Notes: generated from the sequence alone by a model not told the origin. A stretch of DNA of 64,000 bases from an uncultured Bacillota bacterium (GCA_942493145.1 OW818679.1:4062584-4126583), one strand, 5' to 3'; counted from the first letter of the stretch, positions 1,647 to 44,627 are shown. Translations and numbers: made by a program.

Positions 1647-1677
1647 TTCATCCTCCACCAGCTGATGTTTTCTTACG

Positions 1678-4020: not shown

Positions 4021-4032
4021 CTCCACTCCTCC

Positions 4033-4890
4033 TTACTGAACACCGGAGCCTGATACAGCTCCGTCGGCCTGGTCGGCCTGTTGTGTTTTTGTATAACCGT
4101 TATATACCATCATTTCCTCATCAAAACCCGATGCCATTTCAAGGGCCTTTTTATACTCAGCATCTGCCTCTTCCCAGGAGTGTATGTTTGCATATGCCTG
4201 CGCCAGCTTTACCCTTTTCTCAATTGAATCGGGCTGCCCGTCCACTGCAAGCTTGTAATAGTATATCCCTCTCAAATTGTCATCCAACCCCCAGTAACAG
4301 TCTCCCAGGGTCATATATGCATCTGCATAATCAGGCTGCAGCTTGATTATATATCGCAACGTATCTATTGCAGTGCTATAGTTTTTCTCCTCATACCATA
4401 ATATTGCATAATTGTATCGCGCATCTAAATCGTACCCGTTTTGATTGAGGATTTCTTCATACCTGCGCTTCGCCTCCTGATTGTTTCCAGCTTCTGCATA
4501 CAGGGATCCCAACTCATACTTGATGTTCCTGCTGAATTCAGTAAGGTTTGAGCTTTCTTTTTCCAGCCAGGCTGCTGCTTTCTCTGCATTTTCTTTTTCC
4601 AGTATCTTTTCAGCTCTGGCGATCATGGTCTTTTCATCATTAACATCTGTAAGGGTTTCTGCTGAAAAAAGCCCTGCAAGGAAAAGCACTGCGAGTGCAA
4701 GAACTGCTAATGACATTATCCCTTTGCCAATCATGCCCCCCATTTTGGGGAATAGTTTACCAACCAGGACGTTTATCAGCACAAGGAGAAGGCCGCAGGC
4801 TATGAGTAGGGCATGCAGTCCGGTGTAGCCGTGGATTGCAATATCAGCTCCAGCTCCCAGCAATATAAGTATTCCAAACAATACCATCAT
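4033..4890 (-). CDS. Membrane-anchored TPR-repeat protein
   Basis: N-terminal TM helices are followed by TPR-like repeats (LGSLYAEAGNNQEAKRRYEEIL, AILWYEEKNYSTAIDTLRYII, MTLGDCYWGLDDNLRGIYYYKLAV). Start reassigned to ATGATG at 4890, which has GGAGG 9 nt upstream and lies just after the upstream gene's TAA. Confidence 0.7.
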   Translation of the reverse strand: MMVLFGILILLGAGADIAIHGYTGLHALLIACGLLLVLINVLVGKLFPKMGGMIGKGIMSLAVLALAVLFLAGLFSAETLTDVNDEKTMIARAEKILEKENAEKAAAWLEKESSNLTEFSRNIKYELGSLYAEAGNNQEAKRRYEEILNQNGYDLDARYNYAILWYEEKNYSTAIDTLRYIIKLQPDYADAYMTLGDCYWGLDDNLRGIYYYKLAVDGQPDSIEKRVKLAQAYANIHSWEEADAEYKKALEMASGFDEEMMVYNGYTKTQQADQADGAVSGSGVQ

Positions 4891-4891
4891 A

Positions 4892-7477
4892 TTATTGTCC
4901 CTCCTTCTGCTTGAGAAGTGCACTTATCTCCTGGATTTGTATGGTCGAATGTATCGAAACCCCAAAGTGGTCTGTATTATGATCTTCCGCTGGCATATAC
5001 ACAAGGGTCTTCTGGAAAGCTCCCATTGCCTCTTCGTATCTTTCCGTCTTTTTCATGACATGTGCAAGTGAAAACCATGCAAATGGGTCCTCTGGGAAAA
5101 TCACCAGAGCCTGCCTGTACATTTCCTCGGCTTCCGCATAGTACTCAGGCTTGTTCTGTGTGCCGGCCATCTCGAAATACACATTGCCAAGCATGTAATA
5201 CGGCTTTGAGAATCCAGGTGCCAGGTAGATTGCATCTTTCAGAAATTTCTCGCCTTGTACGTAATCTGCTGTCTTCCAGAAGTATGCACCATATATGTAA
5301 TTATAGGCAAACAGGTTGGTATCCTTGATCATTTCGAGGGCTTCCCCTGCTTTGGCGTCCTGCTGCATCAGATATTCATACTTATAGACATACAGGCTGT
5401 AAAAATCATCGTATGTGGTAAAGATACCGGTTTCGGGTTCCATAGCATCCGAGAATTTTGACAACTGCTCGAGTGAACCGGAATAGTCCCGTTTCAAAAG
5501 ATCGATGACCGCCTTGCAGTAAAGTGAGAACCATCTGCCCGGCTCTTTTGCCAATATCCCGTCTATTATTGTTTCCGCCTGTTGTGCCGCCTCGGAATAA
5601 CTAAAGTCGGTGTTCTTCCTTAGCAGAGAATATGCGTATTGTTCTGATATATCCGGATTGTCCGGGTACTGTGCATAGGATGACTCCAGCGAAGTCTCCA
5701 TAACACTCTGGTTGCCTGCCCTCATTGCTATGCCGGTTGCAAAGTCCTGTGCCCATTGCTCACCGGGAAATTGTTTGAGTATTGTCTGGGAGGCTTTTAT
5801 AGCTTCTTCATATATCTTTCCGTCCTGCTTGATTTCCAGATCCGTTAATGCAATCAGGTAGTTGACCGCAAGATTTTCCGGCATTACCTGTTGCAGTTGT
5901 TTAAGCTCTGCCATCGCTTCAGGGTAGAGCTGGTTTTCATAATATGATATGGCAATTGTAGCGAAGTTCTCCATATAGGCAACGTCTCCTGCCACATACT
6001 GCTCCGCCAGTTTGCCTGCGGAGTTCGCCCCAATACCGTCAAGTTGCCGCAATCGGTTGTAGACACCGGCCTTAATCAGTTTATCGGCGATGTCTGCAGA
6101 TTTGTCTTTCATATTGTTTGCATTATAAAGCTTCATTAGTTCAAAATATGAATCATACCACTCAGGAGAGAGCCGTATGGCCTGCTCCAGGTATGTGATG
6201 CTGGTGGACGGGTTGCTTTCCCTCTGCCTCATTGCATCGATATAATAAACCAGGCCACTGTTTGGCCAATATGTATATGCATTTGTGATTGCGGCATTGG
6301 CCTTCGCACCCAATTCTGCCTTTGCTTTTTCAGTTACATTTTTATCCTTCACCGCCTGCGCATTGTAAAGATACCCTTCAAAAGCCTGTGAAACTGCAAA
6401 AGCTCTCTTGTAACCGGTTCCGCAAAGATACAGCCTGTCTGCATTCCTGTCTTCCTCAGCCTTTGCGGTAAGGTCTGCACGGTACTCATCGATTTCATTT
6501 TCGATTGAGCCGGCTACAGGTATAACAGAATATATGGATCCGATTATAAAAAGTGCAAGAAGTATAAGTCCTGGAAGTGGGTTTCCACGCTTGGGAGGCT
6601 GCATTGCCTGGTATTGTGGGGCCTGGTATTGCGGCGTCTCGTATTGCGGTGACTGGTATTGTGGGGCCTGGTATTGCGGCATCTCGTATTGCGGTGACTG
6701 GTATTGCGGTTCTTTAATTATATCTGCTTTGGTGTTTTTTACATCAATTAGCTTTATGGTAAACAACATTACAAATCCAATAAAACATGCCAGCAGAACA
6801 TACCGGTAAAACAGTGCCAATGACGCCGACATTGCCGTACCCTTGAGAAACTCCCAAGCATGGCTGTAAATGATAATTCCCACCGCTATTGATAGAATGA
6901 TAATTACAATAAGTGCGAGTAAGAATAGCGGCTTTTTCAAACACAGCTTAAGTGATTTCGCCAGTGCCCTTCCATATCCGTTCATGTCTGTCTTCTCATA
7001 AGCCAGCCGCCAGGATACATTAAGGAACAAAACAAACAAAAAGGCTGCAACGACCAGTGCGGCTATAGCGCCAAAGAATGCAGGAGTCAAATCCAGCTTG
7101 ATTATTGGCGGAATTATGTATTCCAGTAATTCGATAATGCATATTCCAAAAAGGAAATTAAGCATGGATGCAATGCTTTGATTGTCGGATTTTATGGTTG
7201 AGGAACCTTCCGGGGTAGCTTTTGTAGCTGTAGCAGACGTGTTGTCCCGATTGTTGATAAGTCTTTTTACCGCGAGTTGGAAAAATACAGCGCCCAGGGC
7301 AATTCCAATCAGTCGGAAAAAGATATCCAGAATAAATGGAACGTGCTCCTGCTTGAGAATAATGAACATTGCACCCGCAAAGTCACCCATAAGGACCGAC
7401 AAAGGAACAAACAGAACGAATAAGGCCGCTAAAAGGCTTGTCCTGTTCCCGGTAGCTTGCTTGATTTCAGCAAACAT
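4892..7477 (-). CDS. Polytopic membrane protein with a PQYQ pentapeptide repeat linker and a large C-terminal TPR-repeat region
   Basis: 861-aa ORF. About 6 hydrophobic helices come first, then EPQYQSPQYEMPQYQAPQYQSPQYETPQYQAPQYQ, another TM helix, and many TPR-like repeats. Confidence 0.75.
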   Translation of the reverse strand: MFAEIKQATGNRTSLLAALFVLFVPLSVLMGDFAGAMFIILKQEHVPFILDIFFRLIGIALGAVFFQLAVKRLINNRDNTSATATKATPEGSSTIKSDNQSIASMLNFLFGICIIELLEYIIPPIIKLDLTPAFFGAIAALVVAAFLFVLFLNVSWRLAYEKTDMNGYGRALAKSLKLCLKKPLFLLALIVIIILSIAVGIIIYSHAWEFLKGTAMSASLALFYRYVLLACFIGFVMLFTIKLIDVKNTKADIIKEPQYQSPQYEMPQYQAPQYQSPQYETPQYQAPQYQAMQPPKRGNPLPGLILLALFIIGSIYSVIPVAGSIENEIDEYRADLTAKAEEDRNADRLYLCGTGYKRAFAVSQAFEGYLYNAQAVKDKNVTEKAKAELGAKANAAITNAYTYWPNSGLVYYIDAMRQRESNPSTSITYLEQAIRLSPEWYDSYFELMKLYNANNMKDKSADIADKLIKAGVYNRLRQLDGIGANSAGKLAEQYVAGDVAYMENFATIAISYYENQLYPEAMAELKQLQQVMPENLAVNYLIALTDLEIKQDGKIYEEAIKASQTILKQFPGEQWAQDFATGIAMRAGNQSVMETSLESSYAQYPDNPDISEQYAYSLLRKNTDFSYSEAAQQAETIIDGILAKEPGRWFSLYCKAVIDLLKRDYSGSLEQLSKFSDAMEPETGIFTTYDDFYSLYVYKYEYLMQQDAKAGEALEMIKDTNLFAYNYIYGAYFWKTADYVQGEKFLKDAIYLAPGFSKPYYMLGNVYFEMAGTQNKPEYYAEAEEMYRQALVIFPEDPFAWFSLAHVMKKTERYEEAMGAFQKTLVYMPAEDHNTDHFGVSIHSTIQIQEISALLKQKEGQ
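6606..6712 (-). repeat. In-frame tandem repeat, 15-nt period (about 7 copies, with a 45-nt super-period), encoding xPQYQ
   Basis: ctggtattg(t/c)gg-type units are visible directly on the plus strand. The plus-strand shadow ORF translates to WYCGAWYCG. Confidence 0.9.
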
Positions 7478-9487: not shown

Positions 9488-11098
9488 TCAAACCCCCCTG
9501 GTTTCCTTTTCAAGCACCACTCCGTTATCATTACCGTTACCATTGTTGTTGCCATTCGTTCCATTCGCAGCATTCTTTTCCATATCGCTGAAGACCCTGT
9601 TGATTGCATTAAGATATGCCTTCACACTAGCCTCAATAATATCTGTACTTACGCCTCTCCCGACATATATCCGGCCATCCTTGGCAACACGTACCGTAGC
9701 TTCACCCTGGGCATCCGCACCTTCAGTGACACCCTTAAGGCTGTAATCCTGGAGATCAAGGCTGAACCCAACTGTCCGTTCGATGGCATTAAACGCTGCG
9801 TTTACAGGTCCGTCACCGGTTGCAGCTTCGGTAATAGGCTCTCCATCCTTTTTCAAGCTGACTGTTGCTGTAGCTATGACCTTGTTACCGCTGTTGATCT
9901 GGAAGGTATCCAGAACATATACTTCCTTGACCTCTGAAACCATCTCTTCAACCAGCACCTCAATGTCCCTGTCCAGAACGGTCTTTTTCTTGTCCGCCAG
10001 GTTCTTGAACTGTTCAAAGGCCTTTGCGATATCAGATGGCAAGAGGTTATAACCCATTTCCTTCAGTCTTTCTTCAAAAGCATGTTTTCCTGAAAGCTTT
10101 CCGAGCACCATCCGGTTATGGGTGAGACCGATGGATTCCGGCGTCATGATCTCGTACGTTGTCTTTTCTTCAAGAACTCCGTGCTGGTGTATTCCTGATT
10201 CGTGTGCAAAAGCATTGGCGCCTACTATCGCCTTGTTGGGCTGTACTACTATGCCCGAAAGTCCGCTTACCATTTTACTTGCTCTGTATATCTGCCTTGT
10301 ATCTATATTATGAACATAACCCTTATAAAAATCCTTCCTGGTTTCAAGCCCCATTACCAGCTCTTCAAGGGAGGCATTACCAGCCCTCTCTCCCAGGCCG
10401 TTAATAGTGCATTCCAGCTGTGTCGCCCCGTTGACCAGCGCTTCAAGTGTGTTTGCAACCGCCAGTCCAAGGTCATTGTGGCAATGGACGCTGATATCCG
10501 CCTTGTGGATATTGGGAACGTTTTCGCTGATCCCTTTTATGAAAAGGCCATACTCCTGCGGTGTGGCGTAGCCAACCGTGTCTGGTATGTTCAGGACTGT
10601 AGCGCCGGCATTTATGACACCTTCCAGCACCCTGTACAGGAATTCAGGCCGGGATCTGCTGGCATCCTCCGCTGAAAACTCCAGGTCACTGCAATATTTC
10701 TTCGCATATTTCACCATAGCTATAGCACGCTGCAGCACTTCCTCTTCAGTCATCTTCAGCTTGTATTTCATGTGTATGTCAGATGTGGCGATAAAGGTGT
10801 GGATACGCGGATTTTCAGCCTTACATACAGCTTCCCAGGCCCTGTCGATGTCCGCTTCAGATGTTCTGCACAAGCTTGCTATTGTTGCACCCTTTACGTT
10901 CTCCGCTACCGTCTTTACTGCAAGAAAGTCGCCAGGCGATGCAATCGCAAATCCTGCCTCTATTACATCAACACCCATCTTGGCCAACTGTCTTGCTATC
11001 TCAAGCTTTTCCTGTATATTCAGATTGACTCCCGGGGTTTGCTCTCCGTCTCTCAATGTCGTATCAAAAAACTTTATACGTTTTGGCAATGCTCTCAC
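9488..11098 (-). CDS. leuA: 2-isopropylmalate synthase
   Basis: [32 protein letters not shown] and a LeuA_dimer C-terminus are present. The start is ambiguous: GTG at 11098 abuts the GGAG, while TTG at 11089 has better spacing. Confidence 0.9.
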
Positions 11099-11133
11099 TC
11101 CTTCTTTCCCTGATTGATCTCTTATTCATAAAT

Positions 11134-11200
11134 CCACAGCCTGTCGCCGTAGCCGGCTGTGGTATAGCAGCGGGTCAGGGGGCATCAGCCCCCGCCCTGC
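11134..11200 (-). other. Two adjacent GC-rich hairpins in the ilvC-leuA intergenic spacer
   Basis: ccacagcc...ggctgtgg (11134-11162) and gcagcgggtcaggggg...cccccgccctgc (11167-11200). No clear T tract follows. They could be a processing or stability element or a weak internal attenuator. Confidence 0.3.
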
Positions 11201-11211
11201 TTTATCTATTG

Positions 11212-12207
11212 TTACTTCTTAAGCCAGCTCATCATCTTTCTGAGTTCTGCGCCGACCTTTTCAAGCTGGTGTTCCGATTCGAGCCTCCTGGTTGAGAGGA
11301 ATTCCGCCCTGCCACCTGCCTTGTTCTCCGCTACCCATTGGGATGCGAATGCACCACTCTGGATTTCGTAAAGAACCTTCTTCATTTCCTTCCTGGTCTC
11401 CTCTGTGATTATCCTCTTGCCGATTTTGTAATCGCCATATTCGGCAGTATCACTGATGGAATACCTCATCATGGCAAATCCGCCGCTGTTGATAAGGTCG
11501 ACTATGAGCTTCATTTCGTGGATACATTCAAAGTAGGCTATTTCAGGCTGGTACCCTGCATTTACAAGTGTTTCAAAGCCTGCCTTCATCAATTCCGTAA
11601 CACCGCCGCAAAGTACTGCCTGTTCTCCGAACAAATCGGTCTCAGTTTCTTCCCTGAAGGTCGTTTCAAGAATACCTGCCCTGCCGGCACCTATACCTGC
11701 AGCATATGCAAGTGCGTAATCCTTTGCCTTGCCTGACGCATCCTGATAGACTGCGATAAGAGAAGGGACTCCCTTACCCTCGTTGTACTGGTATCTGACG
11801 GTATGTCCCGGTCCTTTTGGTGCGACCATGATGACATCAACATTCTTCGGTGGAAGTATAAGGTTGAAGTTGATGTTGAAGCCGTGTGCAAACATAAGTA
11901 CATTGCCCTCTTTCAGATTGGGCATTATGCTTTCCTTATACATGTCCATTTGTGTCTGATCGGGTGTAAGGATCATTATAAGGTCGGCAACCTTCGCCGC
12001 TTCAGCCGTATCAAGGACTTTAAGCCCATCCTTTTCAACCTGGCTCCTCTTTTCCGATGTCGGTGCAAGTCCTACAACAACATTGATACCACTATCCTTT
12101 AAATTCTGTGCATGGGCATGGCCCTGGCTTCCATATCCTATTACCGCTATAGTCTTGCCCTTAAGCAAGCCCAGGTTGCAATCCGCATCATAATACATCT
12201 TTGCCAT
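11212..12207 (-). CDS. ilvC: Ketol-acid reductoisomerase
   Basis: [40 protein letters not shown] is a canonical class I KARI N-terminus. Confidence 0.95.
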
Positions 12208-35300: not shown

Positions 35301-35469
35301 TCAGCCTGCCTTCGTAGTGCCTCCCTGGTATTTTGCCCTGGTTGCCTCTCCGCCTCTGATATGCCTCTCCGCCTTGTTCTCTTCAAGAACCATCCTTACA
35401 TGGACAGCAAGCTCAGGTTTAGCCCTGTTTAACCTTTCAGTAACATCTTTGTGGACGGTTGATACAAAT
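35301..35469 (-). CDS. spoIIID: spoIIID 3' segment (C-terminal 49 codons plus stop) of a split gene
   Basis: Not in the ORF track. The minus strand reads (ST)VH KDVTERLNRAKPELAVHVRMVLEENKAERHIRGGEATRAKYQGGTTKAG*. This matches the conserved second half of SpoIIID (HKD.TERL...RH.RGGEAT). It has no start codon of its own. Confidence 0.85.
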
Positions 35470-35506
35470 TGTAATTTAATTGTTGTCTCAACTATTAAAT
35501 TTTCTA

Positions 35507-37033
35507 TTATATTTTCTTTAGTTGGACAGTTACCTCTCCTTCAGGGTTGACTGTTATCTTCTCAATAATTTGTTTCAGCCCTGCATTATTAAGTGTATTA
35601 TCATCCATGATGTTTTCAATGGAATAAAGCAGCTGATCTATTCGTGCTTTTACAATGTCAGGTTTTGAAACATCGTCACCGATTAAATCCAGGTTTTTCT
35701 CATGAGCATTGATCTCTTTGTCAATGGGCTCAAGCTTTAATTGAAGTTCTGACTTTGAAATGATTCCGTCTGTGAATAAATCGAGGGTTTTTTCTCGCTT
35801 CTTTTTAAGCCGGGTTATCCTTTTATTAATGTCTTTAGCATTTAAAGCCCCTGTTTGCAGATCCTTTTCCGCATAAATTCTTTTGAATTCCTTTTGTGTC
35901 CTGTCAAAAAACGCTTTTTTATCTGAAATGACAGATGTGAAATACCCCCTGATTGATCCAAGAAGTTCCTGTTCGTCAAGTACTGTATTGTTTGAGCAGC
36001 TGCTTTTGCCGTGAACGTTTCTTCCGGAGCAGATCCATCTGTAATATGTGTTTGCGTAGGTTGCCGTATACCTGCGAAAGCTGTAACCGCATTCAGCACA
36101 TTTTATAATCGTTGAGAAAAGATGCCTGTTGCTTTGCCTCGTTCTGTTCACTTTGAAATCTGTATGCCGTTGCTTCAATATCGTCTGTGCCTTTTCGAAG
36201 GTCCCCCGGTCAATTATCGCAAGGTCCGGATATTCGTGTACTATCCATTCCTCCCTGTCCCTGTTCTTTCTTTTAGAGGTAAGATAGTCGGTTATCTCCT
36301 GCTTTCTGTTGATGACCTTTCCTGTGTACAATTCATTCGCAAGTGTCCTGCATATGGCCGCCTGTGTCCATTGACTATTGCGCTTGGTCCTGAAACCCCT
36401 TTCATTAAGTTCATTTGCTATCCTGAGCGCCCCGAGATCCTGGGTAGTATAAAGTGAGAATATGAGTCTTATTACGTCTGCTTCGATTTCATTAATTTGA
36501 AGTATCGCTTTTTTTCTATTCGTCTCAGTTTTTATCCGAATTGAATCATAACCGAATACACATGTAGGAATGGATCCTTCCTGTCTGCTTCGCTGTTCTT
36601 TACCCCATTTTGTACGTTTTGAGATGTTGCTGCTTTCTTCCTGTGCAAGAAGTGAGAATATTCCCAGTGTCAGTTCGCCCTGCCCGATTACGTTCAGGTT
36701 GTTGGTCAAAAATATGGTGTCAATGCCCAGATCCCTCAGTTCCCGGATATATTGCAGAAAATGCAATGTGTTACGTGAGAACCTGTCCAATCCTTTTGTA
36801 ATTACAATTTCAAACAGCCCTTTGCGTGCATCCTCCATCATTTTAAGGAAGGCTGCCCGGTTCCTGAGCTTAAGACCACTCAGGCCTTCATCAGTGTATA
36901 TGTTGACAAGCTCAAAATTATTGATTTTAGCATAGTCTTCAAAGAAAGTACGCTGATTCTCAAGTGAATTCATTTGTTCATCCTTTGTTGTTGATACCCT
37001 CGTATATGCAGCTATTCGCCTTTTTCCCGTCAT
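35507..37033 (-). CDS. Large serine recombinase (resolvase catalytic domain, recombinase domain, zinc ribbon, coiled coil)
   Basis: From ATG 37033 (AGGAAGGG upstream) the protein begins MTGKRRIAAYTRVSTTKDEQ, which contains the catalytic Ser. DRFSRN, LLAQEESSNISKRTKWG and CAECGYSF...WICSGR...SSC (the Zn ribbon) follow, then a C-terminal coiled coil. The ORF is intact. Confidence 0.9.
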   Translation of the reverse strand: MTGKRRIAAYTRVSTTKDEQMNSLENQRTFFEDYAKINNFELVNIYTDEGLSGLKLRNRAAFLKMMEDARKGLFEIVITKGLDRFSRNTLHFLQYIRELRDLGIDTIFLTNNLNVIGQGELTLGIFSLLAQEESSNISKRTKWGKEQRSRQEGSIPTCVFGYDSIRIKTETNRKKAILQINEIEADVIRLIFSLYTTQDLGALRIANELNERGFRTKRNSQWTQAAICRTLANELYTGKVINRKQEITDYLTSKRKNRDREEWIVHEYPDLAIIDRGTFEKAQTILKQRHTDFKVNRTRQSNRHLFSTIIKCAECGYSFRRYTATYANTYYRWICSGRNVHGKSSCSNNTVLDEQELLGSIRGYFTSVISDKKAFFDRTQKEFKRIYAEKDLQTGALNAKDINKRITRLKKKREKTLDLFTDGIISKSELQLKLEPIDKEINAHEKNLDLIGDDVSKPDIVKARIDQLLYSIENIMDDNTLNNAGLKQIIEKITVNPEGEVTVQLKKI

Positions 37034-37265
37034 TTGTCCCTTCCTGCCTTTCAGTTGCAGCGTTATCTTCTTTTGAAGCTGAAACCTTATCTGCTTTTGA
37101 AGCCGAAACCTTATCTTCTTTTGAAAACGCAATATCACCCTCCGACGAGGCTGTACAGGTATTGAATAAATATATGCTTTTTGCAAGCATGGCAGCCAAT
37201 GCAGCCGGGAGTGTGTCAGGATCTGTGTTTGGATTGATGAATCGGATATTCAAAGGTTTTCTCAT
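36978..37265 (-). CDS. Possible small ORF (95 aa, MRKPLNIRFINPNTDPDTLPAALAAMLAK...) overlapping the recombinase start in another frame
   Basis: ATG 37265 lies 8 nt after GAGG. The ORF contains an 8-aa tandem repeat, (K/E)DKVSASK, encoded by the 24-bp repeats. I recognise no family, so it may not be translated. Confidence 0.3.
   Translation of the reverse strand: MRKPLNIRFINPNTDPDTLPAALAAMLAKSIYLFNTCTASSEGDIAFSKEDKVSASKADKVSASKEDNAATERQEGTNDGKKANSCIYEGINNKG
37063..37130. repeat. Tandem 24-bp repeats (2.8 copies) immediately upstream of the recombinase start codon
   Basis: The copies read ttatcttcttttgaagctgaaacc / ttatctgcttttgaagccgaaacc / ttatcttcttttgaaaacgc. Confidence 0.9.
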
Positions 37266-37284
37266 AGCTTGTACCTCACGATAC

Positions 37285-37295
37285 ATTATATTCAG
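37285..37295 (-). promoter_or_regulatory. Candidate -10-like block CTGAATATAAT upstream of the recombinase unit; the identical 11-mer sits upstream of spoIID (46784-46794)
   Basis: Both copies lie 20-40 nt upstream of a start codon on the minus strand. AATATAAT resembles the sigma-E -10 (cATAcanT) and also the sigma-A TATAAT. No convincing -35 was found. Confidence 0.25.
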
Positions 37296-37344
37296 ACAAG
37301 GCCGTGGACATTACCCTTGTTAACGATGTGCAGCTTTGAAGGGC

Positions 37345-37385
37345 AAATTAAAAGACCACCAGCGGAAAGAGCTCCAATGGTGGCC
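37345..37385 (-). terminator. Terminator after the 583-aa cargo gene, separating it from the recombinase unit
   Basis: On the minus strand, GGCCACCA...TGGTGGTC (one G-U pair) is followed by TTTTAATTT. Confidence 0.5.
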
Positions 37386-37430
37386 TGATACCTTGTTGCC
37401 GGGCCCAGCCAGGCGTAGTTGTCAGCAGAC

Positions 37431-39182
37431 TTATTTGTCAACTGGCTGGATATACGTATTGTCAAATATATTTCCCGTTATATCGATATCATCAATCAAC
37501 CAGGTTTGAACATTTTCACCTTTCACCGCTGTTATCAGCATCCAGTAAGCTGTTCCGAGCCTGGCACCGGATATGCTTTTGGTGGATTTAGCAAGGGGCA
37601 GGACATAGTCCCTCATGTAGGTATTTATAGCTGATTTCGTCATCACCAAAGGAAATGTTTCTATATACCCAACATCATCATAGTAGCTGTACGTGTTTTC
37701 ATAAATATCTGTAAAGTACATGGACTCCAATTCCGGCGAAAGCCTGATGGTCACATGATCAGGGTCCCCAAGTGTTGTTACGTCGATTTTCACAGCTTCA
37801 TATGAAAGGAAGCGATGAGGTTCAACAGACATTACCCTGCCGAAGATATCCTTCTGTCCCCTCCAGTGATTCCAGTACCCGGTCAGGCTGACACCTGTTA
37901 TCTTTAATGATGTCCTTGTAAATGTGCCCCTATACCGGGTATATGAGTTTCCTGCAACGTCGGTGGCTTTCATAAAAAGATAGTATGTGCCGTCGGTTGT
38001 TAATGTTGCTGTATACGAAAATGAATCCACTCCACCGGCACTTATAGCAGTCCATCCCGAAACCGGTACAGCCGTTGAATCAGACCAGGCATGTTCTATT
38101 GAAGCCAGACCACTGCCACCAGTATCTGTTGCAGTAATTATTGCCTCAAGATCATCTGCAGCGACTGATACCGAAGCAGGAGAACAATCAATTTCCGGCG
38201 CAACCCTGTCGATGCTGAAAGGACCGCGAACCCTGGAGAACTCGCCTCCTGCGGCATCACAAGCCATCATGTGCAGGTACCAGATGCCCGTTGTAGCAGC
38301 TGTTGCCGTTGTGCTCAGCTCCGCCACACTTGTAGCAGTTACTGTTGTCCATATTGACGGTGTTTCCGTCGAATCGCTCCAGGCATATTTGATATGGGAT
38401 AAATCAGGTGTAGTATCTACAGCTGTAATCAGGGCAGGTACATTTTCATTTGTCCAATCCTTTTTTACAGGCGTACAATCTATATCCGGCACCAGATTGA
38501 CAAGGTCGGTGGAAAGAGTCAATACGTGGGGCAGGCTTGATGCGCCTTCCATATCAGTCACTACAAGGGACACAAGGTAGGTCTCCCCTTCAGCCCATGT
38601 CGATGGCAAGTCTGTGCAGCTTGTCCAGCTATCGTCATCAACATCCTTCCATTTCCACTCCCAGGAAACAATTCCCCTGTCTGCAAGCGAAATATGGTCA
38701 GGGTCATATGAGTTGTCCGACAATGATGAAATATAGTTCCCCGATGTGTTCAACCCTGTAAAGCCCATATTGAATGCTGCAACCGGCCTTCGATGGGCGA
38801 ATACCGTCATTCCGACCCGGTCTTTACTCCAAAGCTTGTATTCATCAAAGCCTGCATCGCTTTTCGGGTTGTCCTGCACCATGTAGGTTATCTCATATTT
38901 CCCTGTCTGTGTGAAGGTAGTCACCGGTGATGCCCGGCAAATTCCGGAGAAGCTTGCTGTTCCGGTATTGTTTTCAAAATATGAAGGAACATGATCAAAC
39001 CTCCACTTTGAATCATACATTGGATCACCTTCATAGTCGCTATAGTATGTTTTGTATTCAAGAGCATCTTCATCAACTATGGCAAAGGCTTCAACGACAG
39101 TGTCTTTGGGGGTCGCATATTTCGTCCTTAGATCATTTGCAGCTGCAGCATATTGACCGGAATCATACAGTATACCCGCCAC
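37431..39182 (-). CDS. Cargo protein with a PKD-like domain and two ~95-aa Ig-like (OmpL47-type-like) repeats
   Basis: Three things support the call:
- A PKD-like segment: SYDPDHISLADRGIVSWEWKW and GETYLVSLVVTDMEGASS.
- Duplicated modules: IDC.P...AWSDST..P..WT......GTYYLFMKATDVAGN.
- A GTG start with no signal peptide, so the N-terminus may be missing. Confidence 0.65.
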   Translation of the reverse strand: MAGILYDSGQYAAAANDLRTKYATPKDTVVEAFAIVDEDALEYKTYYSDYEGDPMYDSKWRFDHVPSYFENNTGTASFSGICRASPVTTFTQTGKYEITYMVQDNPKSDAGFDEYKLWSKDRVGMTVFAHRRPVAAFNMGFTGLNTSGNYISSLSDNSYDPDHISLADRGIVSWEWKWKDVDDDSWTSCTDLPSTWAEGETYLVSLVVTDMEGASSLPHVLTLSTDLVNLVPDIDCTPVKKDWTNENVPALITAVDTTPDLSHIKYAWSDSTETPSIWTTVTATSVAELSTTATAATTGIWYLHMMACDAAGGEFSRVRGPFSIDRVAPEIDCSPASVSVAADDLEAIITATDTGGSGLASIEHAWSDSTAVPVSGWTAISAGGVDSFSYTATLTTDGTYYLFMKATDVAGNSYTRYRGTFTRTSLKITGVSLTGYWNHWRGQKDIFGRVMSVEPHRFLSYEAVKIDVTTLGDPDHVTIRLSPELESMYFTDIYENTYSYYDDVGYIETFPLVMTKSAINTYMRDYVLPLAKSTKSISGARLGTAYWMLITAVKGENVQTWLIDDIDITGNIFDNTYIQPVDK

Positions 39183-39273
39183 CAGGGAACTGTTAACAAA
39201 GCTTCGTTTGTCATCTCTGTGGTAATGCCTGAATCAAAATCTTTCGAAGTGGGCAAACAGCTATAATTTAGAG

Positions 39274-40345
39274 CTATTTCTCGAAGCTAGAGTGTTTCCG
39301 AAGTATTGGTTCCGTTGAGTAGATGCTGTCGTGATACCCACATAAATACGTAGACCCTTTTTTTAATGATGATGTGCTGAAATCAGATAGATTTGGGGCA
39401 AAGACATGTGTTTGCCAGGTTGGTGTCGAGAGTGCAGACACACTTACTGTTCTGGGACTTGATGCTGTTGATGAACCATAAAACTTCCCTCCGCTGGTCA
39501 TATAAGACAGATTACTTATGGCAACAATATTGCTCAGTTCATAGTTAGTAGTTACAGCACCGGTTAACGTTTTAGTCGAACCAATATATCTGTATGTATA
39601 TTCCGAACTGCTTTCCCTCATTACCTGTGTCATTGTACCGTCTTTATATGCCCAGACAGTGCCGTCGGTTTTCAGGATTCTTAATGCATAAGAGGTGGTC
39701 GTCATTTTGTATGTAGTACCGCTTACTGTAAATGAAGACCCCTCTTCTACAGGAATAGTACCATAAACCATGTCCTGAATGTCGCTTCCGTCCAGTCCGG
39801 TTTAGGTGGCGTGCTTGCAGAACCTGGCGGTCGGATCATGGTTGTAGTTCCGGCACGGTTGTCTGGCACCTGTGTCCGGGCAAACTGCCCCACGTCCAAA
39901 CCCTGTTGTCCGTTTCAGCGTGGTTTCATTTTGCCTGTATACTCGTGGAGTAGAATATCTTCTTTTATTGGTAGGTTAGGTATTGAACAAGGTTATATGC
40001 CTCTAACCACATGATTGCAGGATACCCTCCCAAATATTGTGCATCCCATGAATACTTACTCAACGGTCCGAGTATTCCGAAACAGGCATTCCCTTTTCCC
40101 CAAACCGTACCATCGTTCTTGAGAACTAAAAGCGTATTATCGCCGCCTGTGATTTGTTTTGCATTGGTCGTTATATCATTTGGACCGTAGTAGTAGGGCT
40201 GGAGACCTCCTGCTCCGATATAAACAAGCTGGTGAAACCTGCCGGAACCATGAATCTGGACTTTTCCGGCCGAGTCCAATGATATGATGTTGGAGCCACA
40301 TATAAAAGCATCCTTGTACGTCTTCCCCTGTCCTGTATATGTCAT
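39274..40345 (-). pseudogene. Fragmented RCC1-like repeat gene(s), with coding potential split across frames
   Basis: The fragments at 39965..40345 (ITGGDNTLLVLKNDGTVWGKGNACFGILG) and 39274..39771 (ILKTDGTVWAYKDG) look like RCC1 blades. The 39772-39964 spacer translates as DNRVWTWG... in a different frame. No single frame is open across the region. Confidence 0.45.
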
Positions 40346-40530
40346 ATTCGGATTTCCAATGGCAGGTGATTTTACGATATATCACTGTTAAAATTCACCG
40401 GTTGGAAGAAACCGTTCCTGCCACAGGTGGGGGAAGGGTGAAAATTTGTTGTTGAAGTACTACCCCGTACTCTCCATTTTCGGTGATTAGAGCTGTGAGT
40501 TGTTGGTGTATTGTGGTTACATCTTATAAT

Positions 40531-42141
40531 TTAAGCTCCCACAGCTCCACTTGCCGGTACATAAGAATAATAAGATCCATCATGGCGATAATAGGAGCTG
40601 TTGTTATATGCCCTGAATTTTATAAACTGTCCATCTTTTATTATGCTGCCTGCCTTAATACCGGTTGAGCCATCGTTGATAGTGTAATTCAAGTCAACAC
40701 TATTTGTATAGGCTGAAGATTTAAGAGAGCTTAGCTCTGATACAAGGCTTGTTAGTTTTGTTCCTGTATAGTCGGTGACAACGGACACATCGACAAGCTG
40801 CTTTTCTACAAGCGAAAAGCTTGCTGACGGTGCATTGTTGATACATTCTGCCCTGCCGTCGCATGCAGAAGTAAGGTAATCACTTTCAGAAACAAAGGAT
40901 ATTATTGTTTCCTGTCCGAATTCCTCTTTTACTTTTAGTGTTATCTTGTAGTTGCCGACCTCTGGAGCCTTTATCTCAATATCTTTGTCAGTACCGCTAT
41001 CTATTGATCCCATAACGGTTTCATCCGTGAAATCTCCGTCATTATCCGAATCGTAAAAGTATGTCCAGACCCTGCTCGATATGATATCCCCATCAGGGCT
41101 GTAGCTTTGGTCGGTTACATTTATGTAAGCCAGGTTGCTGTCCGCTGGATCGCGCATTACTGTCTCCGGTGCAAAAAACGCGGTTTCGGGTGGTGCGTCT
41201 TGTGCAATCCATATTGTCTTTGTGATAGTGTCGGAATACCCCAGGCTGTTATATACCGTAAGAGTTATATTGTAGGTTCCGGTCTTTTTTATAAGTATAT
41301 CCCTGCTCACATTTCCGTCCAATACTCCTTCATACTTAATATCGCTTACTGTACCTCCGGAAACAGGTGTTATAGTCCATTTTGTGAGACCTGTGTTGAT
41401 TGGATATGCTGCCGTACTGTAGCTCGTACTGGAATCAATGGTGAATTTTCTGTTTTCTTTCAGGCTTCCGGTTATAAAGCATGCGGCTTTCGGTTTGGGT
41501 GGCGTCACGGTTATTGTCTTACTTGTATAGGCTTGCTCCCCTGCTGAATCCATGACATACAGAACAATGTCATACGTCCCTGTATATAGATATGTTACAT
41601 TGCCCGAACCCGTTTCCATCGCCGTCTCTACGGCGCCGCCCAGTTCCCAGTAATAATAGACAATGGCACCATTGGGCGATGATGACCTGTAGCCGTTTAT
41701 GGAAACACTACTGCCTGCCTCGAAACTGTTGGGGGCGGTAATGACTGCCGTTGGTTCACCAAGTACAGGTACAGCAGCCTTGTAGAATTCTGTTTCTGTA
41801 TAGGTTGAGTTTTGCAGTTGGGCATCGGAGCCCACATTAGCCTTGAATTTAGCGACTGCAGTGATCTTAATCTTCTGCAAATATGAATTTACACTGAATT
41901 TGCTTTTGTCTACCGTAAAGGTATGGCTTATTGAAGAAGTCAGGCTTCCACCGGAAAGGACGGAGGACTGCACTGTTGAATCCTCTCCATCAAGCTTTGC
42001 ATACCATGTCCATGAGGCAACATTTGCTGCGTTTGTATATTGCTTTAAAGCTGCGTTGGCGGTAATCGTTATTGTTTCATTTGATGTACCCGTAATCTGT
42101 TTGCTGTATGGACTTGCTGTTGCCACAACCTCAAGTATCAC
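40531..42141 (-). CDS. Cargo protein made of several PKD-like Ig repeats
   Basis: The repeats have GTYDIVLYVMDSAGEQAYTSKTITV, TGTYNITLTVYNSLGYSDTITKTIWI and VGNYKITLKVKEEFGQETI signatures. The ORF begins at GTG without an RBS or signal peptide. The frame stays open upstream (..PDLKPNRHKAKP), which suggests a truncated N-terminus. Confidence 0.65.
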   Translation of the reverse strand: MILEVVATASPYSKQITGTSNETITITANAALKQYTNAANVASWTWYAKLDGEDSTVQSSVLSGGSLTSSISHTFTVDKSKFSVNSYLQKIKITAVAKFKANVGSDAQLQNSTYTETEFYKAAVPVLGEPTAVITAPNSFEAGSSVSINGYRSSSPNGAIVYYYWELGGAVETAMETGSGNVTYLYTGTYDIVLYVMDSAGEQAYTSKTITVTPPKPKAACFITGSLKENRKFTIDSSTSYSTAAYPINTGLTKWTITPVSGGTVSDIKYEGVLDGNVSRDILIKKTGTYNITLTVYNSLGYSDTITKTIWIAQDAPPETAFFAPETVMRDPADSNLAYINVTDQSYSPDGDIISSRVWTYFYDSDNDGDFTDETVMGSIDSGTDKDIEIKAPEVGNYKITLKVKEEFGQETIISFVSESDYLTSACDGRAECINNAPSASFSLVEKQLVDVSVVTDYTGTKLTSLVSELSSLKSSAYTNSVDLNYTINDGSTGIKAGSIIKDGQFIKFRAYNNSSYYRHDGSYYSYVPASGAVGA

Positions 42142-42167
42142 TGGTTTGGCTTTATGACGGTTTGGTT

Positions 42168-42940
42168 TTAGATCCGGCAGCAGTAGGGCATCCCCATTTT
42201 CGACTCAGGCCGTCCCGTGTGTCGGGTTAAGTCCAGGTCGTTGAAGAGATGAATACCGGTCGTAGATTGCCGACAGGGGCCGTTAGCACCTGATTCTTGA
42301 TGCTTTTCGTGGTCGCATTTGGCAGTGCCGGACAGTTCTGTTGTCGGTGCCATTGTTTGTGCTGTTTGGTGTTGATACGGTGCACGCCAGTTTTGGAGTC
42401 CCCATTGAGGGGCCTGTAAGGGTTGCATACCTAAGCTTGTTATGGTAATATTTCGGTGAAAGAGAAAGCCGGTGTTCCATGTGGGAAGGTCTACTTTTGC
42501 CTTATTTACACCGCCTGATGTACTGTAACTGAGGTGTTTCGTTCCAGAATAGGCAGAGGAGCTTAAGTTGGTTTTTTTGATCTGTTCGATTTGTCCCTAT
42601 TTGTCAGATCATCACTATCCCCATATAGGAGCCACCCCCCCTGAATCGGGGAAAATTTTTTGTAACCTTAGTTCCATTGTAGGAATAACCAAGATATCGA
42701 TATTCAATTGTGCCATTATGGTTTGGGATTGAATCACCCGTGGCAGTATCTCCAAAAGGCGAACCGTAAACAATCTGGTTATCATACTTAAGGTAAGTAG
42801 AAAAATTAGCCTCATAAAGTTGGTTGCTGCTCATTGTTGAGCCATACAACCCGTTTAAATAAGTCGCGAATTGCTCGTAAGTTGTAAATGGAGAAAATAG
42901 GGTAACAAATATTTTTTTTCTTTTCTTTTATTCACCCGCC
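42168..42940 (-). pseudogene. Decayed coding region (frame-hopping fragments), including an 81-aa fragment at 42604..42849
   Basis: Plausible peptide stretches alternate among all three minus frames (YATLTGPSMGTPKLACTVSTPNSTNNGTDN / TKSIKNQVLTAPVGNLRPVFISSTTW / ...). An A8 run at 42912-42919 separates a GTG-MNKRKEKK start from the downstream FVTLFSPFTTYEQF...YGSTMSSNQ frame. Confidence 0.4.
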
Positions 42941-42972
42941 CTTTTTCAAGATAGGAGAATAAAGGTGTTTGA

Positions 42973-43452
42973 CTAGCGCAAATGTTTCCTCATATTTCCA
43001 AACAATTTCGTTTCCTTGTCGTTTATTTGTGCGTAGTACCTTGAATCTTCGCTCTTAAAGTCCCTTACATATTTTTCATAAACATACTTATATATTTCTG
43101 TACCTGTCGTTTTCCCAAACAAAGCTACTAGAGAATCCCTGAGCTTCTTTTCAAAGTATGGGCTGCTTAAGCTGTCCTGGTATTCATATCCCCAATAGAG
43201 CTGGTTGACATCCAAGCTGACAACTACCTTGTCGGAGAATGATGTATATTGAGAATCTGTTTTTGCATTCCAGTACTCGTCATCATAAAACTTAAAATCG
43301 AAGTATGTTGCATTTACTTGCGTCTGAAGCTCCCCTTTGCGTCCTTTTTCGAGCCATTTAAACTGTTCGAATTTGCCTTTGTTTCTTTCGCCTTCACTAC
43401 CTTTCCTCTCAGCCAACACCTTCTCAAATTTATTTGCCTTTTTTGGATTCAT
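42973..43452 (-). CDS. Hypothetical cargo protein (159 aa)
   Basis: The ORF is intact, and its ATG overlaps the upstream stop (ATGA), which suggests translational coupling. No family recognised. Confidence 0.5.
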   Translation of the reverse strand: MNPKKANKFEKVLAERKGSEGERNKGKFEQFKWLEKGRKGELQTQVNATYFDFKFYDDEYWNAKTDSQYTSFSDKVVVSLDVNQLYWGYEYQDSLSSPYFEKKLRDSLVALFGKTTGTEIYKYVYEKYVRDFKSEDSRYYAQINDKETKLFGNMRKHLR

Positions 43453-43967
43453 TCTTCAGAAACGACCTTATCCGTAAATGGTATGCTGCCGTATTCATCC
43501 TTGAACACAAGCCTCCTGTTCACCGTATCAAAGTCATAATATTGGTTTGAGGTATGATCTGCATTGAACACCTTGGCAAGGAAATCTTCATCACTCATTG
43601 AACTGAACTCGCCGAGGTTATATATCCTGATTTCATCGTGCTTCTGGCTCTCTATCCACTGCACCGTGTACCCAAAGGCTTCAAAGGCATAACGAATCGG
43701 TATGTAAGTCCGGTTCACCGTTGGATCGATAATGGTCTTTGTATCCATGGTATAAGCTGTATCGTTTATGTAATACGTGGTGCTGCCCAGAGGGAATTTG
43801 ACCGTAGATCCGTTAAATTCTCCTACAGCTGTCCTGGTTACAGCATCCCATGAAACCACAGCACCAAGTGCCTCTAAAAGATCCCTGAAAGGGTAAAGTG
43901 TCCGGCCGTGTTTTACATCCGACAGTATGGGCAGGGTCAGGTTCTGTTTCTCACTGTTAATATACAC
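43449..43967 (-). CDS. Copper-amine-oxidase N-terminal-domain-like ('stalk' domain) protein whose leader region appears disrupted
   Basis: GRTLYPFRDLLEALGAVVSWD...TYIPIRYAFEAFGYTVQW is the typical two-lobed repeat of this domain. The tracked start is GTG. A signal-peptide-like reading upstream (43968-44122) contains in-frame stops. Confidence 0.55.
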   Translation of the reverse strand: MYINSEKQNLTLPILSDVKHGRTLYPFRDLLEALGAVVSWDAVTRTAVGEFNGSTVKFPLGSTTYYINDTAYTMDTKTIIDPTVNRTYIPIRYAFEAFGYTVQWIESQKHDEIRIYNLGEFSSMSDEDFLAKVFNADHTSNQYYDFDTVNRRLVFKDEYGSIPFTDKVVSEE

Positions 43968-44277
43968 CGTTATCGGCCGGGTTCGCGTGTAGGATACCCC
44001 TGCTCGGATTCAGCTTCTCATTTAATCTGCTGCATTTTGGTAGAGCGAAAGCCGGAGCCCGCAAACGCTGAAAGTAAAATCGATACTGTAAATAAATATT
44101 ACAGTCTTGAAGTATTTTTTGAAAACATAGTAGTCTCCTTTTGATGTATTTTTTTGTTTAATGCAAATGTAGTCATTCCCTATAATGTAAAATATTTACT
44201 TTATCATAATAACAAATATTTTTCTGCCTTTCAATCTTTTTCGACATTGAATAGAAAATTTTTCCTATATTTCTCAG

Positions 44278-44305
44278 TACAAAAAAAGGACCGGCATGGT
44301 CCTTT
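44278..44305 (-). terminator. Terminator just inside the right end of the element, downstream of the truncated spoIIID 5' ORF
   Basis: On the minus strand, aaaggacc atgcc ggtccttt (8-bp stem) is followed by a T run (plus-strand A7 at 44281-44287). Confidence 0.55.
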
Positions 44306-44318
44306 TCAAACCTCTCTA

Positions 44319-44453
44319 TTATGTTACAACCGTGTGGACGGTGCTTTTACTTATTCCAAATTTCCTTGCCGCCGCCCTTACTGTAGTTTTCTTCTCAATG
44401 ATATAATTGGCCAGTTCAACTGCCCTTTCTTCAATATATCCTTTCAACTGCAT
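44319..44453 (-). CDS. spoIIID: spoIIID 5' segment (40 native codons, then 4 element-encoded codons and a stop)
   Basis: Not in the ORF track. ATG 44453 follows GAGGGGG. The translation is MQLKGYIEERAVELANYIIEKKTTVRAAARKFGISKSTVH, then TVVT*. The native part is the SpoIIID HTH up to the SKSTVH recognition helix. Confidence 0.85.
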   Translation of the reverse strand: MQLKGYIEERAVELANYIIEKKTTVRAAARKFGISKSTVHTVVT

Positions 44454-44548
44454 ATACCCCCTCTAAAAGTCATACCTTGGGAAAAGTATAGCTCAGGCGT
44501 TTTGCCACCAGCTGCTTTCAGGCTTTGTAACTCAAGTCTTCCATTGTA

Positions 44549-44577
44549 TATATATGCCTTTAAAATTAACGATATGA
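44549..44577 (-). promoter_or_regulatory. Sigma-E-like promoter upstream of spoIIID
   Basis: The minus strand reads tCATATc, 14 nt, then CATATATA. The remembered sigma-E consensus is ATATT-N14-CATACAnT. The element lies about 95 nt upstream of the start codon. Confidence 0.4.
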
Positions 44578-44580
44578 ATC

Positions 44581-44627
44581 AAAAGATAAGAAAACCGTGC
44601 AAAATCAACTGATTCCACACGGTTTCC
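44581..44627 (-). terminator. Terminator after the spoIIQ-like gene
   Basis: On the minus strand, GGAAACCGTG-(18 nt)-CACGGTTTTC is followed by TTATCTTTT. Confidence 0.5.

Follow-up and report, generated by a model that had tools for sequence, protein, structure and literature searches.

In a 64,000-nucleotide stretch of the genome of an uncultured Bacillota bacterium (GCA_942493145.1 OW818679.1:4062584-4126583; hereafter the window), the sporulation gene spoIIID is split by an intervening element that encodes a large serine recombinase (LSR). Both the split and the element are real: the coding sequence of a mother-cell sporulation gene is interrupted, and its precise repair by deletion restores the open reading frame (ORF). 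We consider it likely, with clearly better than even confidence, that the element is of the skin/SPbeta/gin type, cut out by its LSR during development of the mother cell. This reading draws on features legible in the DNA itself, namely the split gene and its in silico repair, the anatomy of the LSR and its attachment (att) sites, the target specificity of a whole family of relatives, a phage attP and a conserved small ORF.

The two halves of spoIIID lie on the minus strand. The 5′ part translates as MQLKGYIEERAVELANYIIEKKTTVRAAARKFGISKSTVH, the beginning of SpoIIID up to SKSTVH, and reads on into a TVVT tail with a stop at 44319, giving a truncated ORF of 44 amino acids (aa). The 3′ part (KDVTERL...TTKAG and stop) continues it in frame. 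Removal in silico of 8,883 bp, that is one repeat copy and the DNA between the copies, restores an 89-aa ORF. This joined ORF matches the Pfam SpoIIID family (PF12116) with 133 bits over profile positions 1–79 of 82 and the NCBIfam equivalog TIGR02844 with 124.1 bits, above the curated cut-off of 111.5, over positions 1–79 of 80. The order of genes, murA, spoIID, an M23/SpoIIQ-like gene, the split spoIIID, mreB/mbl, flgF and flgG, is that of the canonical spoIIID position. The expression of spoIIID is sigma-E dependent and mother-cell specific (PMC517825). P0001, the best database match to the joined protein, shows 97% identity, has 89 aa as well and is uninterrupted. It is encoded on metagenome contig L001, next to mbl, in a locus of the same order as in the window. 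The DNA of L001 aligns to positions 44594..44323 of the window and then jumps to 35459..35301, and synteny is thus broken exactly at the core repeat described below. A preliminary description of this DNA had proposed the same split, reading frames and gene order, and had suggested an end-to-end alignment of the joined ORF and a search for a close relative with an uninterrupted gene; all of these have held up. Its 3′ fragment was correctly read as the in-frame continuation, the starting coordinate of 35460 taking in the repeat copy as well.

The sequence GTGGACGGT occurs exactly twice in the window, at 35451–35459 and 44334–44342. These are the two copies of the 9-bp repeat noted earlier; one more shared base makes the full direct repeat 10 bp long (TGTGGACGGT, or ACCGTCCACA on the gene strand). 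In each of the 16 pairs available for the element family, attL and attR share an identical core of 4–10 bp across the same His codon, with CAT as the minimal overlap. As the His codon lies inside every attL/attR identity, the crossover dinucleotide is placed within this codon, and the non-palindromic CA is probably the dinucleotide in question. The element-side arms form an imperfect palindrome, AAACCGTTCTAAttaGTaACaACCaTA and AtgGTTGTAACAAAAtAGAACGGTT on either side of CAT; being inverted repeats of each other, they predict a palindromic attP. For the window element, the predicted attB includes AAAAGCACCGTCCACAAAGATGTTACT and the predicted attP includes TTTGTATCAACCGTCCACACGGTTGTAACATAA. An intact predicted attP, ACCGTTCTATTATCTAACGACCGTG CAT ACAGTAGTAATAATTTAGAACGGT, is found just after the LSR gene in viral contig L083. 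This 62-kb contig encodes DNA polymerase, helicase, ligase, endolysin and tail-fibre genes together with the same LSR and small ORF, and is the one close viral relative. Its intact attP indicates that the family includes a true phage in unintegrated form, beside many reduced elements.

The LSR near the left junction had already been recognized as intact, and its domains are Resolvase (PF00239, 109 bits), Recombinase (PF07508, 80 bits) and Zn_ribbon_recom (PF13408, 42 bits); its stop (35507) lies 47 nucleotides (nt), not 37, from the attR core. Translation most likely starts at ATG 37033 rather than TTG 37186, and an identical NCBI protein (P0121) has 508 aa, the length obtained from that ATG. 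The nucleophile serine in RVS(T) is unchanged across 22 LSR relatives. The protein thus has the features of its class: a catalytic serine, three domains, a short common att core and an imperfectly palindromic attP. Its predicted activity is recombination of attP with attB and, together with a recombination directionality factor (RDF), of attL with attR.

Scanning one genome per species with an alignment of the 22 LSR relatives yielded at least 591 confirmed stretches. The figures given here for the family refer to the best 80 of these (loci L003–L082), in which the LSR is 45–48% identical to that of the window. In 77 of the 80 loci the LSR is followed by a spoIIID 3′ fragment that begins from the same His-Lys-Asp. 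A 5′ fragment ending in SKST(V/I)H was found, within the available flank, 4.1–9.7 kb upstream in 15 of the 77. Every joined ORF, 16 with that of the window, is a full-length SpoIIID by TIGR02844. In another contig, L002, an LSR 63% identical to that of the window is followed 30 nt on by a 63-aa SpoIIID 3′ fragment and then by mbl, flgF and flgG. The carriers are gut and environmental Clostridia, among them Lachnospiraceae and Oscillospiraceae (many of them uncultured), Christensenellaceae, Blautia, Dorea, Roseburia, Schaedlerella, Sporofaciens and Flavonifractor. Sporofaciens musculi WCA-9-b2, Schaedlerella arabinosiphila DSM 106076, Dorea amylophila H5_25 and Flavonifractor sp. An82 are cultured examples. 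The anatomy first proposed for the window element, a recombinase-bearing insertion in a split gene that a clean deletion repairs, is therefore supported by the intact relative, by 77 independent, parallel insertions at the same codon and by the phage attP.

The end of the LSR gene itself is unusual in this family. In 67 of 79 integrated members the stop of the LSR ORF is a TAA or TAG whose T belongs to the His codon and whose other two bases open the Lys codon (e.g. L017, 5974–7539), and in eight more the ORF extends further into spoIIID. Because these stops are built from spoIIID bases, the LSR reading frame crosses the crossover point, which recalls SSV-type integrases, whose gene is split on integration. 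In the free attP form (phage L083, 9986–11572) the LSR ORF is about 16 codons longer. The LSR stop precedes the core in the window, L002 and L038. The measurement is unreliable in L080, where the LSR (10001–11470) is separated from the spoIIID 3′ fragment (13899) by about 2.4 kb that contain a 676-aa ORF in the opposite orientation; this extra DNA suggests a nested insertion or a rearrangement. The L075 element (158–7423) has three extra recombinase-like ORFs beside its terminal LSR and recalls gin with its three recombinases.

Other observations concern the integration sites. The ACCGTCCACA core occurs with similar flanks in the intact spoIIID of several unrelated metagenomic Clostridia (L163–L175), so that a ready-made attB for this type of element is common. 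In L025 (7940–8000) a recognizable P arm and CAT are followed by a ribosome-binding site and the start of a membrane-protein gene, and in L018 (7770–7942) the DNA 3′ of the LSR relative likewise differs from spoIIID; these may be secondary integration sites or rearrangements. GenBank MT838016.1 (L176, 1–6398; 6.4 kb), deposited from human faeces as ‘UNVERIFIED: Bacteriophage sp.’, was considered as a possible excised circle and rejected, as it is linear and carries attR and a spoIIID 3′ fragment. Its LSR is 55% identical to that of L083. With an LSR of this clade, attR and the spoIIID 3′ fragment (3626–3763), it represents a fragment of a bacterial chromosome with an integrated element and no phage genome.

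Clustering of the ORFs of 16 complete elements left only two common genes, the LSR and a small ORF that we regard as a candidate RDF. In the window the last 56 nt of this ORF are shared, in the +1 frame, with the start of the LSR gene. The protein contains a K-L-N-Y-x-F-H-N-P-N-T motif followed by a helix. A hidden Markov model of the small ORF matches 67 of the 80 genome loci and the window, and the ORF is also present in L002 and phage L083. The match is on the LSR strand in all loci but one; 66 loci have a copy upstream of the LSR, no more than 400 nt away in 20 of them and with cargo between both genes in the others. Comparison with Pfam, PHROG and NCBIfam assigned the small ORF to no family; a profile search gathered 1,448 protein clusters, and all that bear names are hypothetical. 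Its AlphaFold model consists of an extended N-terminus and one helix (predicted local distance difference test score, pLDDT, 74). Both members of the window subfamily have repetitive DNA in the small-ORF tail. The window has a 24-bp tandem repeat of 2.6 copies (37063–37125), whereas L002 (2090–2215) has about eight tandem TGTAAC(A/T) units that resemble the C. difficile SpoIIID box KRTAACARK, a motif absent from the window repeat. These repeats may serve as binding sites or simply reflect coding sequence of low complexity.

The B. subtilis sigma-E consensus is kmATAtt-N14-CATAcahT (Helmann and Moran), and the B. subtilis SpoIIID box is WWRRACARNY. In the gut clade of the family, 49 distinct regions upstream of the small ORF have a bipartite motif in common, aGGaCTAttt-N14-CATAGtATT, of which CTA and CATAG are the most informative parts. 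Its spacing and −10 block fit the sigma-E consensus and are sigma-K-like too. A strict sigma-E score of at least 12/15 was reached by 23 of 51 upstream regions compared with 8% of background windows, a moderate enrichment, and a score of 14/15 by 7 of 51 compared with 0.1%. Since enrichment of the strict B. subtilis sigma-E pattern is only moderate, we leave this promoter class as sigma-E/K-like. In phage L083 the small-ORF site TAATATA-N14-CATAAATT agrees with 14 of 15 sigma-E positions; behind the small ORF come a hairpin and then, ahead of the LSR, a sigma-A-like TTGACA-17-TAAAAT. The small-ORF upstream regions of the window and L002 have in common GTAAT-N17-GAATAyAAT-...-CGTGAGGTA. As for spoIIID itself, its promoter candidate in the window comes after the terminator-like hairpin (44627..44590) of the gene before it.

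A SpoIIID-box-like motif, G(G/A)ACAA(A/G), is present in 27 of the 51 gut-clade regions, against 0.04 expected by chance. It is located just past the −10 block or, in a second variant, about 10 nt further, and fits WWRRACARNY. Its position suggests, speculatively, feedback repression of the small-ORF promoter. Some variants have this motif at the ATG-GAC-AAA of an upstream mini-ORF. In L010, L015, L017 and L037 a conserved ATGGACAAAG starts a 12-codon mini-ORF (MDKEKREVGAPL) upstream of the small ORF, and the mini-ORF TGA overlaps the small-ORF ATG (cTATGAag), making translational coupling possible. The mini-ORF offers another possible explanation of why the GGACAAAG motif is conserved.

The elements clearly move between hosts. 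Identical or nearly identical LSRs occur in hosts whose SpoIIID fragments are 21–30% different, and in 167 pairs the LSR distance is below 0.12 with SpoIIID fragments more than 20% different. Over the whole comparison the two distances correlate weakly (Mantel r = 0.29). The host marker here was the 43-aa SpoIIID fragment in place of Mbl: mbl is not found 3′ of spoIIID in most gut loci, which makes a co-phylogeny with Mbl unworkable. The pair formed by the window and L002 offers a different picture. The 583-aa cargo protein, the small ORF and the LSR are syntenic in the two elements and 46–65% identical, host proteins being 47–89% identical, and both halves of spoIIID are undamaged in each. 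This divergence suggests, without proving it, long residence in a split yet usable spoIIID. The element-free L001 is closer to the window organism than L002 is (Mbl 95% versus 89%), and the element has consequently either been cleanly lost in the L001 lineage or been gained more than once.

All genes of the window element are on the spoIIID strand, and its own recombinase adjoins an att site (Table 1). Its G+C content is 43.1%, that of the flanks 44–45%, so that base composition has no power to set the element apart. The terminator-like hairpin behind the truncated spoIIID has a 10-bp stem and a centroid energy of −13.1 kcal/mol; the 66-nt stretch has no significant z-score. The 583-aa cargo protein and the protein in the corresponding place of the L002 element are 57–65% identical; the cargo not listed in Table 1 comprises several proteins of no recognized function. 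A PHROG search of seven cargo ORFs of the window detected no phage structural, packaging or lysis genes, giving two weak RCC1-type matches and one of unknown function, and we do not class the window element as a prophage. In the small elements of the gut clade the cargo resembles anti-phage defence (L021, L030, L047, L050, L052, L056, L067). Five elements encode an AAA_21 ATPase together with RloB; further examples are an AIPR protein, one protein with Schlafen/AlbA_2 + HATPase_c_4 and one with AAA-ATPase_like + PDDEXK_9.

Table 1. Coordinates of spoIIID, the intervening element and associated signals, counted from the window's first nucleotide.
Feature	Position	Strand	Remarks
spoIIID 3′ fragment	35301..35450	minus	codons 41–89 and stop
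attR core	35450..35459		other copy of the 10-bp repeat
Intervening element	35460..44342	minus	8,883 bp including one core copy
LSR, 508 aa	35507..37033	minus	Resolvase, Recombinase and Zn_ribbon_recom domains
Small ORF, 95 aa (MRKPLNIRFINPNTDPDTLPAALAAMLAKSIY...), candidate RDF	36978..37265	minus	upstream of LSR, conserved
Cargo, 583-aa protein	37431..39182	minus	weak immunoglobulin-like (Big_13/PKD) matches
Cargo, 126-aa protein	39965..40345	minus	weak RCC1-like repeat match
Cargo, 536-aa protein	40531..42141	minus	PKD domain
Cargo, 172-aa protein	43449..43967	minus	Cu_amine_oxidN1 domain
Sigma-70-like site TTGAAA-17-TATTAT with TG	44234..44206	minus	upstream of first cargo gene
Terminator-like hairpin AAAAGGACC-ATGCC-GGTCCTTTT and T run	44281..44306	minus	13 nt after the stop of the truncated ORF
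attL core	44333..44342		10-bp repeat TGTGGACGGT (ACCGTCCACA on the gene strand)
spoIIID 5′ fragment	44334..44453	minus	codons 1–40, the last being His40 (CAC, 44336..44334)
Sigma-E-like promoter candidate for spoIIID, TCATATC-N14-CATATATA	44549..44577	minus	12/15 consensus, weak

Reviews and primary papers name sigK, spsM, spoVFB, spoVR, gerE and yabG as targets of intervening elements (PMC4191935, PMC5595907). The preliminary description, which named most of these, suggested that spoIIID is an undescribed target. Strictly taken this is wrong, as Galperin et al. 2022 (bioRxiv 10.1101/2022.02.25.481979) list cotJC of Laceyella sacchari as interrupted by a skin-like element and, likewise, spoIIID of Ruminiclostridium cellulolyticum H10. 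Their report on the H10 gene consists of one sentence and one row of Table S3, without experiments; the row gives a 64.7-kb element with the recombinase Ccel_3111 (511 aa) beside the 5′ fragment and on the opposite strand. Full-text searches of the literature found no description of the family breadth, distribution, RDF candidate or regulation of spoIIID-targeting elements. Thus, spoIIID is a listed but unstudied target, and the window element is a new, differently organized member. By its published description, the H10 element shares with it the target and an LSR of about 510 aa, and the length of the H10 5′ fragment, about 42 codons, puts the insertion point at the same place or very near it. 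However, the H10 element is seven times larger, and its recombinase adjoins the 5′ fragment on the opposite strand, whereas the LSR of the window adjoins the 3′ fragment on the gene strand.

Among the studied systems, skin of C. difficile (skinCd; 14.6 kb, in sigK) is, like the window element, a small element in the gene of a mother-cell regulator. It pairs the LSR CD1231 with a small unrelated RDF, CD1234, much as the window element pairs its LSR with a small candidate RDF. The skinCd recombinase is constitutive, and its RDF is sigma-E-dependent and mother-cell specific (PMC5025042), the logic that the promoter pattern of phage L083 follows. The two differ in that sigK acts downstream of SpoIIID and that expression of CD1234 needs SpoIIID, which is impossible for an element in spoIIID; moreover, the SpoIIID box lies at −46 of CD1234 (activation) and, as proposed here, at the transcription start of the small ORF, a position that suggests repression. 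Skin of B. subtilis has the same layout, attL-rdf-int-attR, and its RDF gene skr overlaps the 5′ end of spoIVCA by 101 nt in the +1 frame, compared with 56 nt in the window (PMC6957869). It is a 48-kb defective prophage, and spoIVCA and skr depend on sigma-E and SpoIIID. The gin element in gerE of Bacillus cereus ATCC 10987 resembles the window element in being small, in lacking phage genes and in residing in a short gene for a mother-cell helix-turn-helix regulator (PMC5595907); however, it has three recombinase genes and a late (sigma-K phase) target, as opposed to one LSR and immunoglobulin-like/PKD-type cargo in the window. SPbeta in spsM (SprA and SprB) is comparable to the present family in that a full phage and degenerate relatives are based on one int-rdf-attP unit (PMC4191935). 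Its target is a late spore-surface gene, and SprB also has a stress-inducible promoter.

For the window element we infer excision and its developmental timing, as the preliminary description had done, together with the RDF role of the small ORF and the sigma factor used. The LSR would bind attL and attR, and the candidate RDF would help it recombine them at a dinucleotide in the His40 codon, probably CA. The element would leave as an attP-bearing circle and an intact 89-aa spoIIID would stay behind. SpoIIID would be restored in the terminally differentiating mother cell, the forespore retaining the element. Because SpoIIID itself would be the product of excision, the trigger cannot need SpoIIID as that of skin does; most likely the small-ORF promoter would be activated by sigma-E and, in the gut clade, possibly switched off later through the SpoIIID-box-like motif at its transcription start.

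Several findings weigh against developmental excision. The attB, attP, attL and attR junctions of the window element were sought in metagenome contigs with one degenerate pattern, and only intact spoIIID of other species, which have the core in common with it, matched. The upstream regions of the small ORF in the window and L002 score 11/15 against the sigma-E consensus, about the background level. In the gut clade the −35 block has CTA where B. subtilis sigma-E promoters have ATA, and sigma-E and sigma-K are inseparable by sequence. It is position and co-occurrence that make the small ORF a candidate RDF, and its single-helix model found no match in the PDB with Foldseek. The ratio of nonsynonymous to synonymous polymorphism (pN/pS) is low for both spoIIID halves across carriers (0.17 and 0.20, with pS of about 0.8), which is no proof of selection while split because the elements move horizontally. 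Finally, the check for another spoIIID spanned the 64-kb window of a 4.34-Mb genome, and a second intact copy elsewhere is possible.

The strongest competing explanation, which we nevertheless regard as unlikely, is that the insertion switches sporulation off. Conserved spoIIID would merely serve as an attB, the carriers would be asporogenous or poor sporulators, and excision would serve transfer or induction and be unprogrammed. The mobility of the elements between diverged hosts, the complete phage with a free attP among their relatives, the variable, mobile-DNA-like cargo (AAA_21+RloB, AIPR, Schlafen/AlbA_2) and the search for excision junctions, which detected none among metagenome contigs, are all in keeping with it, and sporulation loss is common in gut Firmicutes. 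However, the promoter motif of the small ORF is mother-cell (sigma-E/K)-like rather than sigma-A or SOS-type, and in the window and L002 the elements seem to have diverged along with their hosts, with the spoIIID halves and the neighbouring sporulation genes intact. One carrier, Sporofaciens musculi, is presumably a described spore-former, a point for which our literature check gave no confirmation. Furthermore, the experimentally tested insertions of LSR elements into mother-cell sporulation genes (sigK, spsM, spoVFB, spoVR and gerE) are all developmentally excised (PMC4191935, PMC5595907, PMC5025042).

It is much less probable that the split copy is a tolerated pseudogene, made redundant by a second intact spoIIID, and the element an ordinary island. 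The limited span of the window relative to the genome leaves room for such a copy, and some clostridial phages are known to carry SpoIIID-like genes (PMC5027557). Yet the split gene occupies the canonical spoIID-spoIIQ-spoIIID-mbl position, no further spoIIID-like sequence was seen in the window, and the same split recurs in 77 other genomes, both halves being free of frameshifts and stops. A chimeric assembly that placed foreign DNA in spoIIID can be practically dismissed: nothing was found in its favour, the same 10-bp core stands at both junctions, the architecture recurs in L002 and 77 independently assembled genomes, and the contig of the window is a 4.34-Mb chromosome-scale record.

Beyond developmental excision of the window element, a wider proposal covers the family as a whole; we put it forward tentatively, as possible but short of an even chance. 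The spoIIID elements would form a large, horizontally spreading family in hundreds of gut and environmental Clostridia species, with one LSR clade at one His codon gating the step from sigma-E to SpoIIID by a self-limiting circuit. In this circuit sigma-E would drive a novel RDF of about 55 aa, excision would rebuild spoIIID, and SpoIIID would repress the RDF promoter by way of a box at the transcription start; the resulting checkpoint would operate in abundant commensals of the human gut. Excision would also rewrite the LSR C-terminus in most members, the LSR ORF spanning the crossover.

The rearrangements studied so far (sigK, spsM, spoVFB, spoVR, gerE, yabG) all act at or after the SpoIIID step. 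Both skin systems need SpoIIID to fire, and an element inside spoIIID must therefore be wired differently. If developmentally excised, it would constitute a DNA-rearrangement checkpoint right after sigma-E activation, earlier than in any studied case, and an early step of spore formation probably depends in carriers on cutting the element out. The family also yields an uncharacterized group of candidate RDFs and a new LSR specificity with defined attB and attP sequences, and its small members carry anti-phage-like genes. As the same LSR clade is found at the same codon in many gut genera, these elements may affect sporulation, and hence transmission, of common gut commensals.

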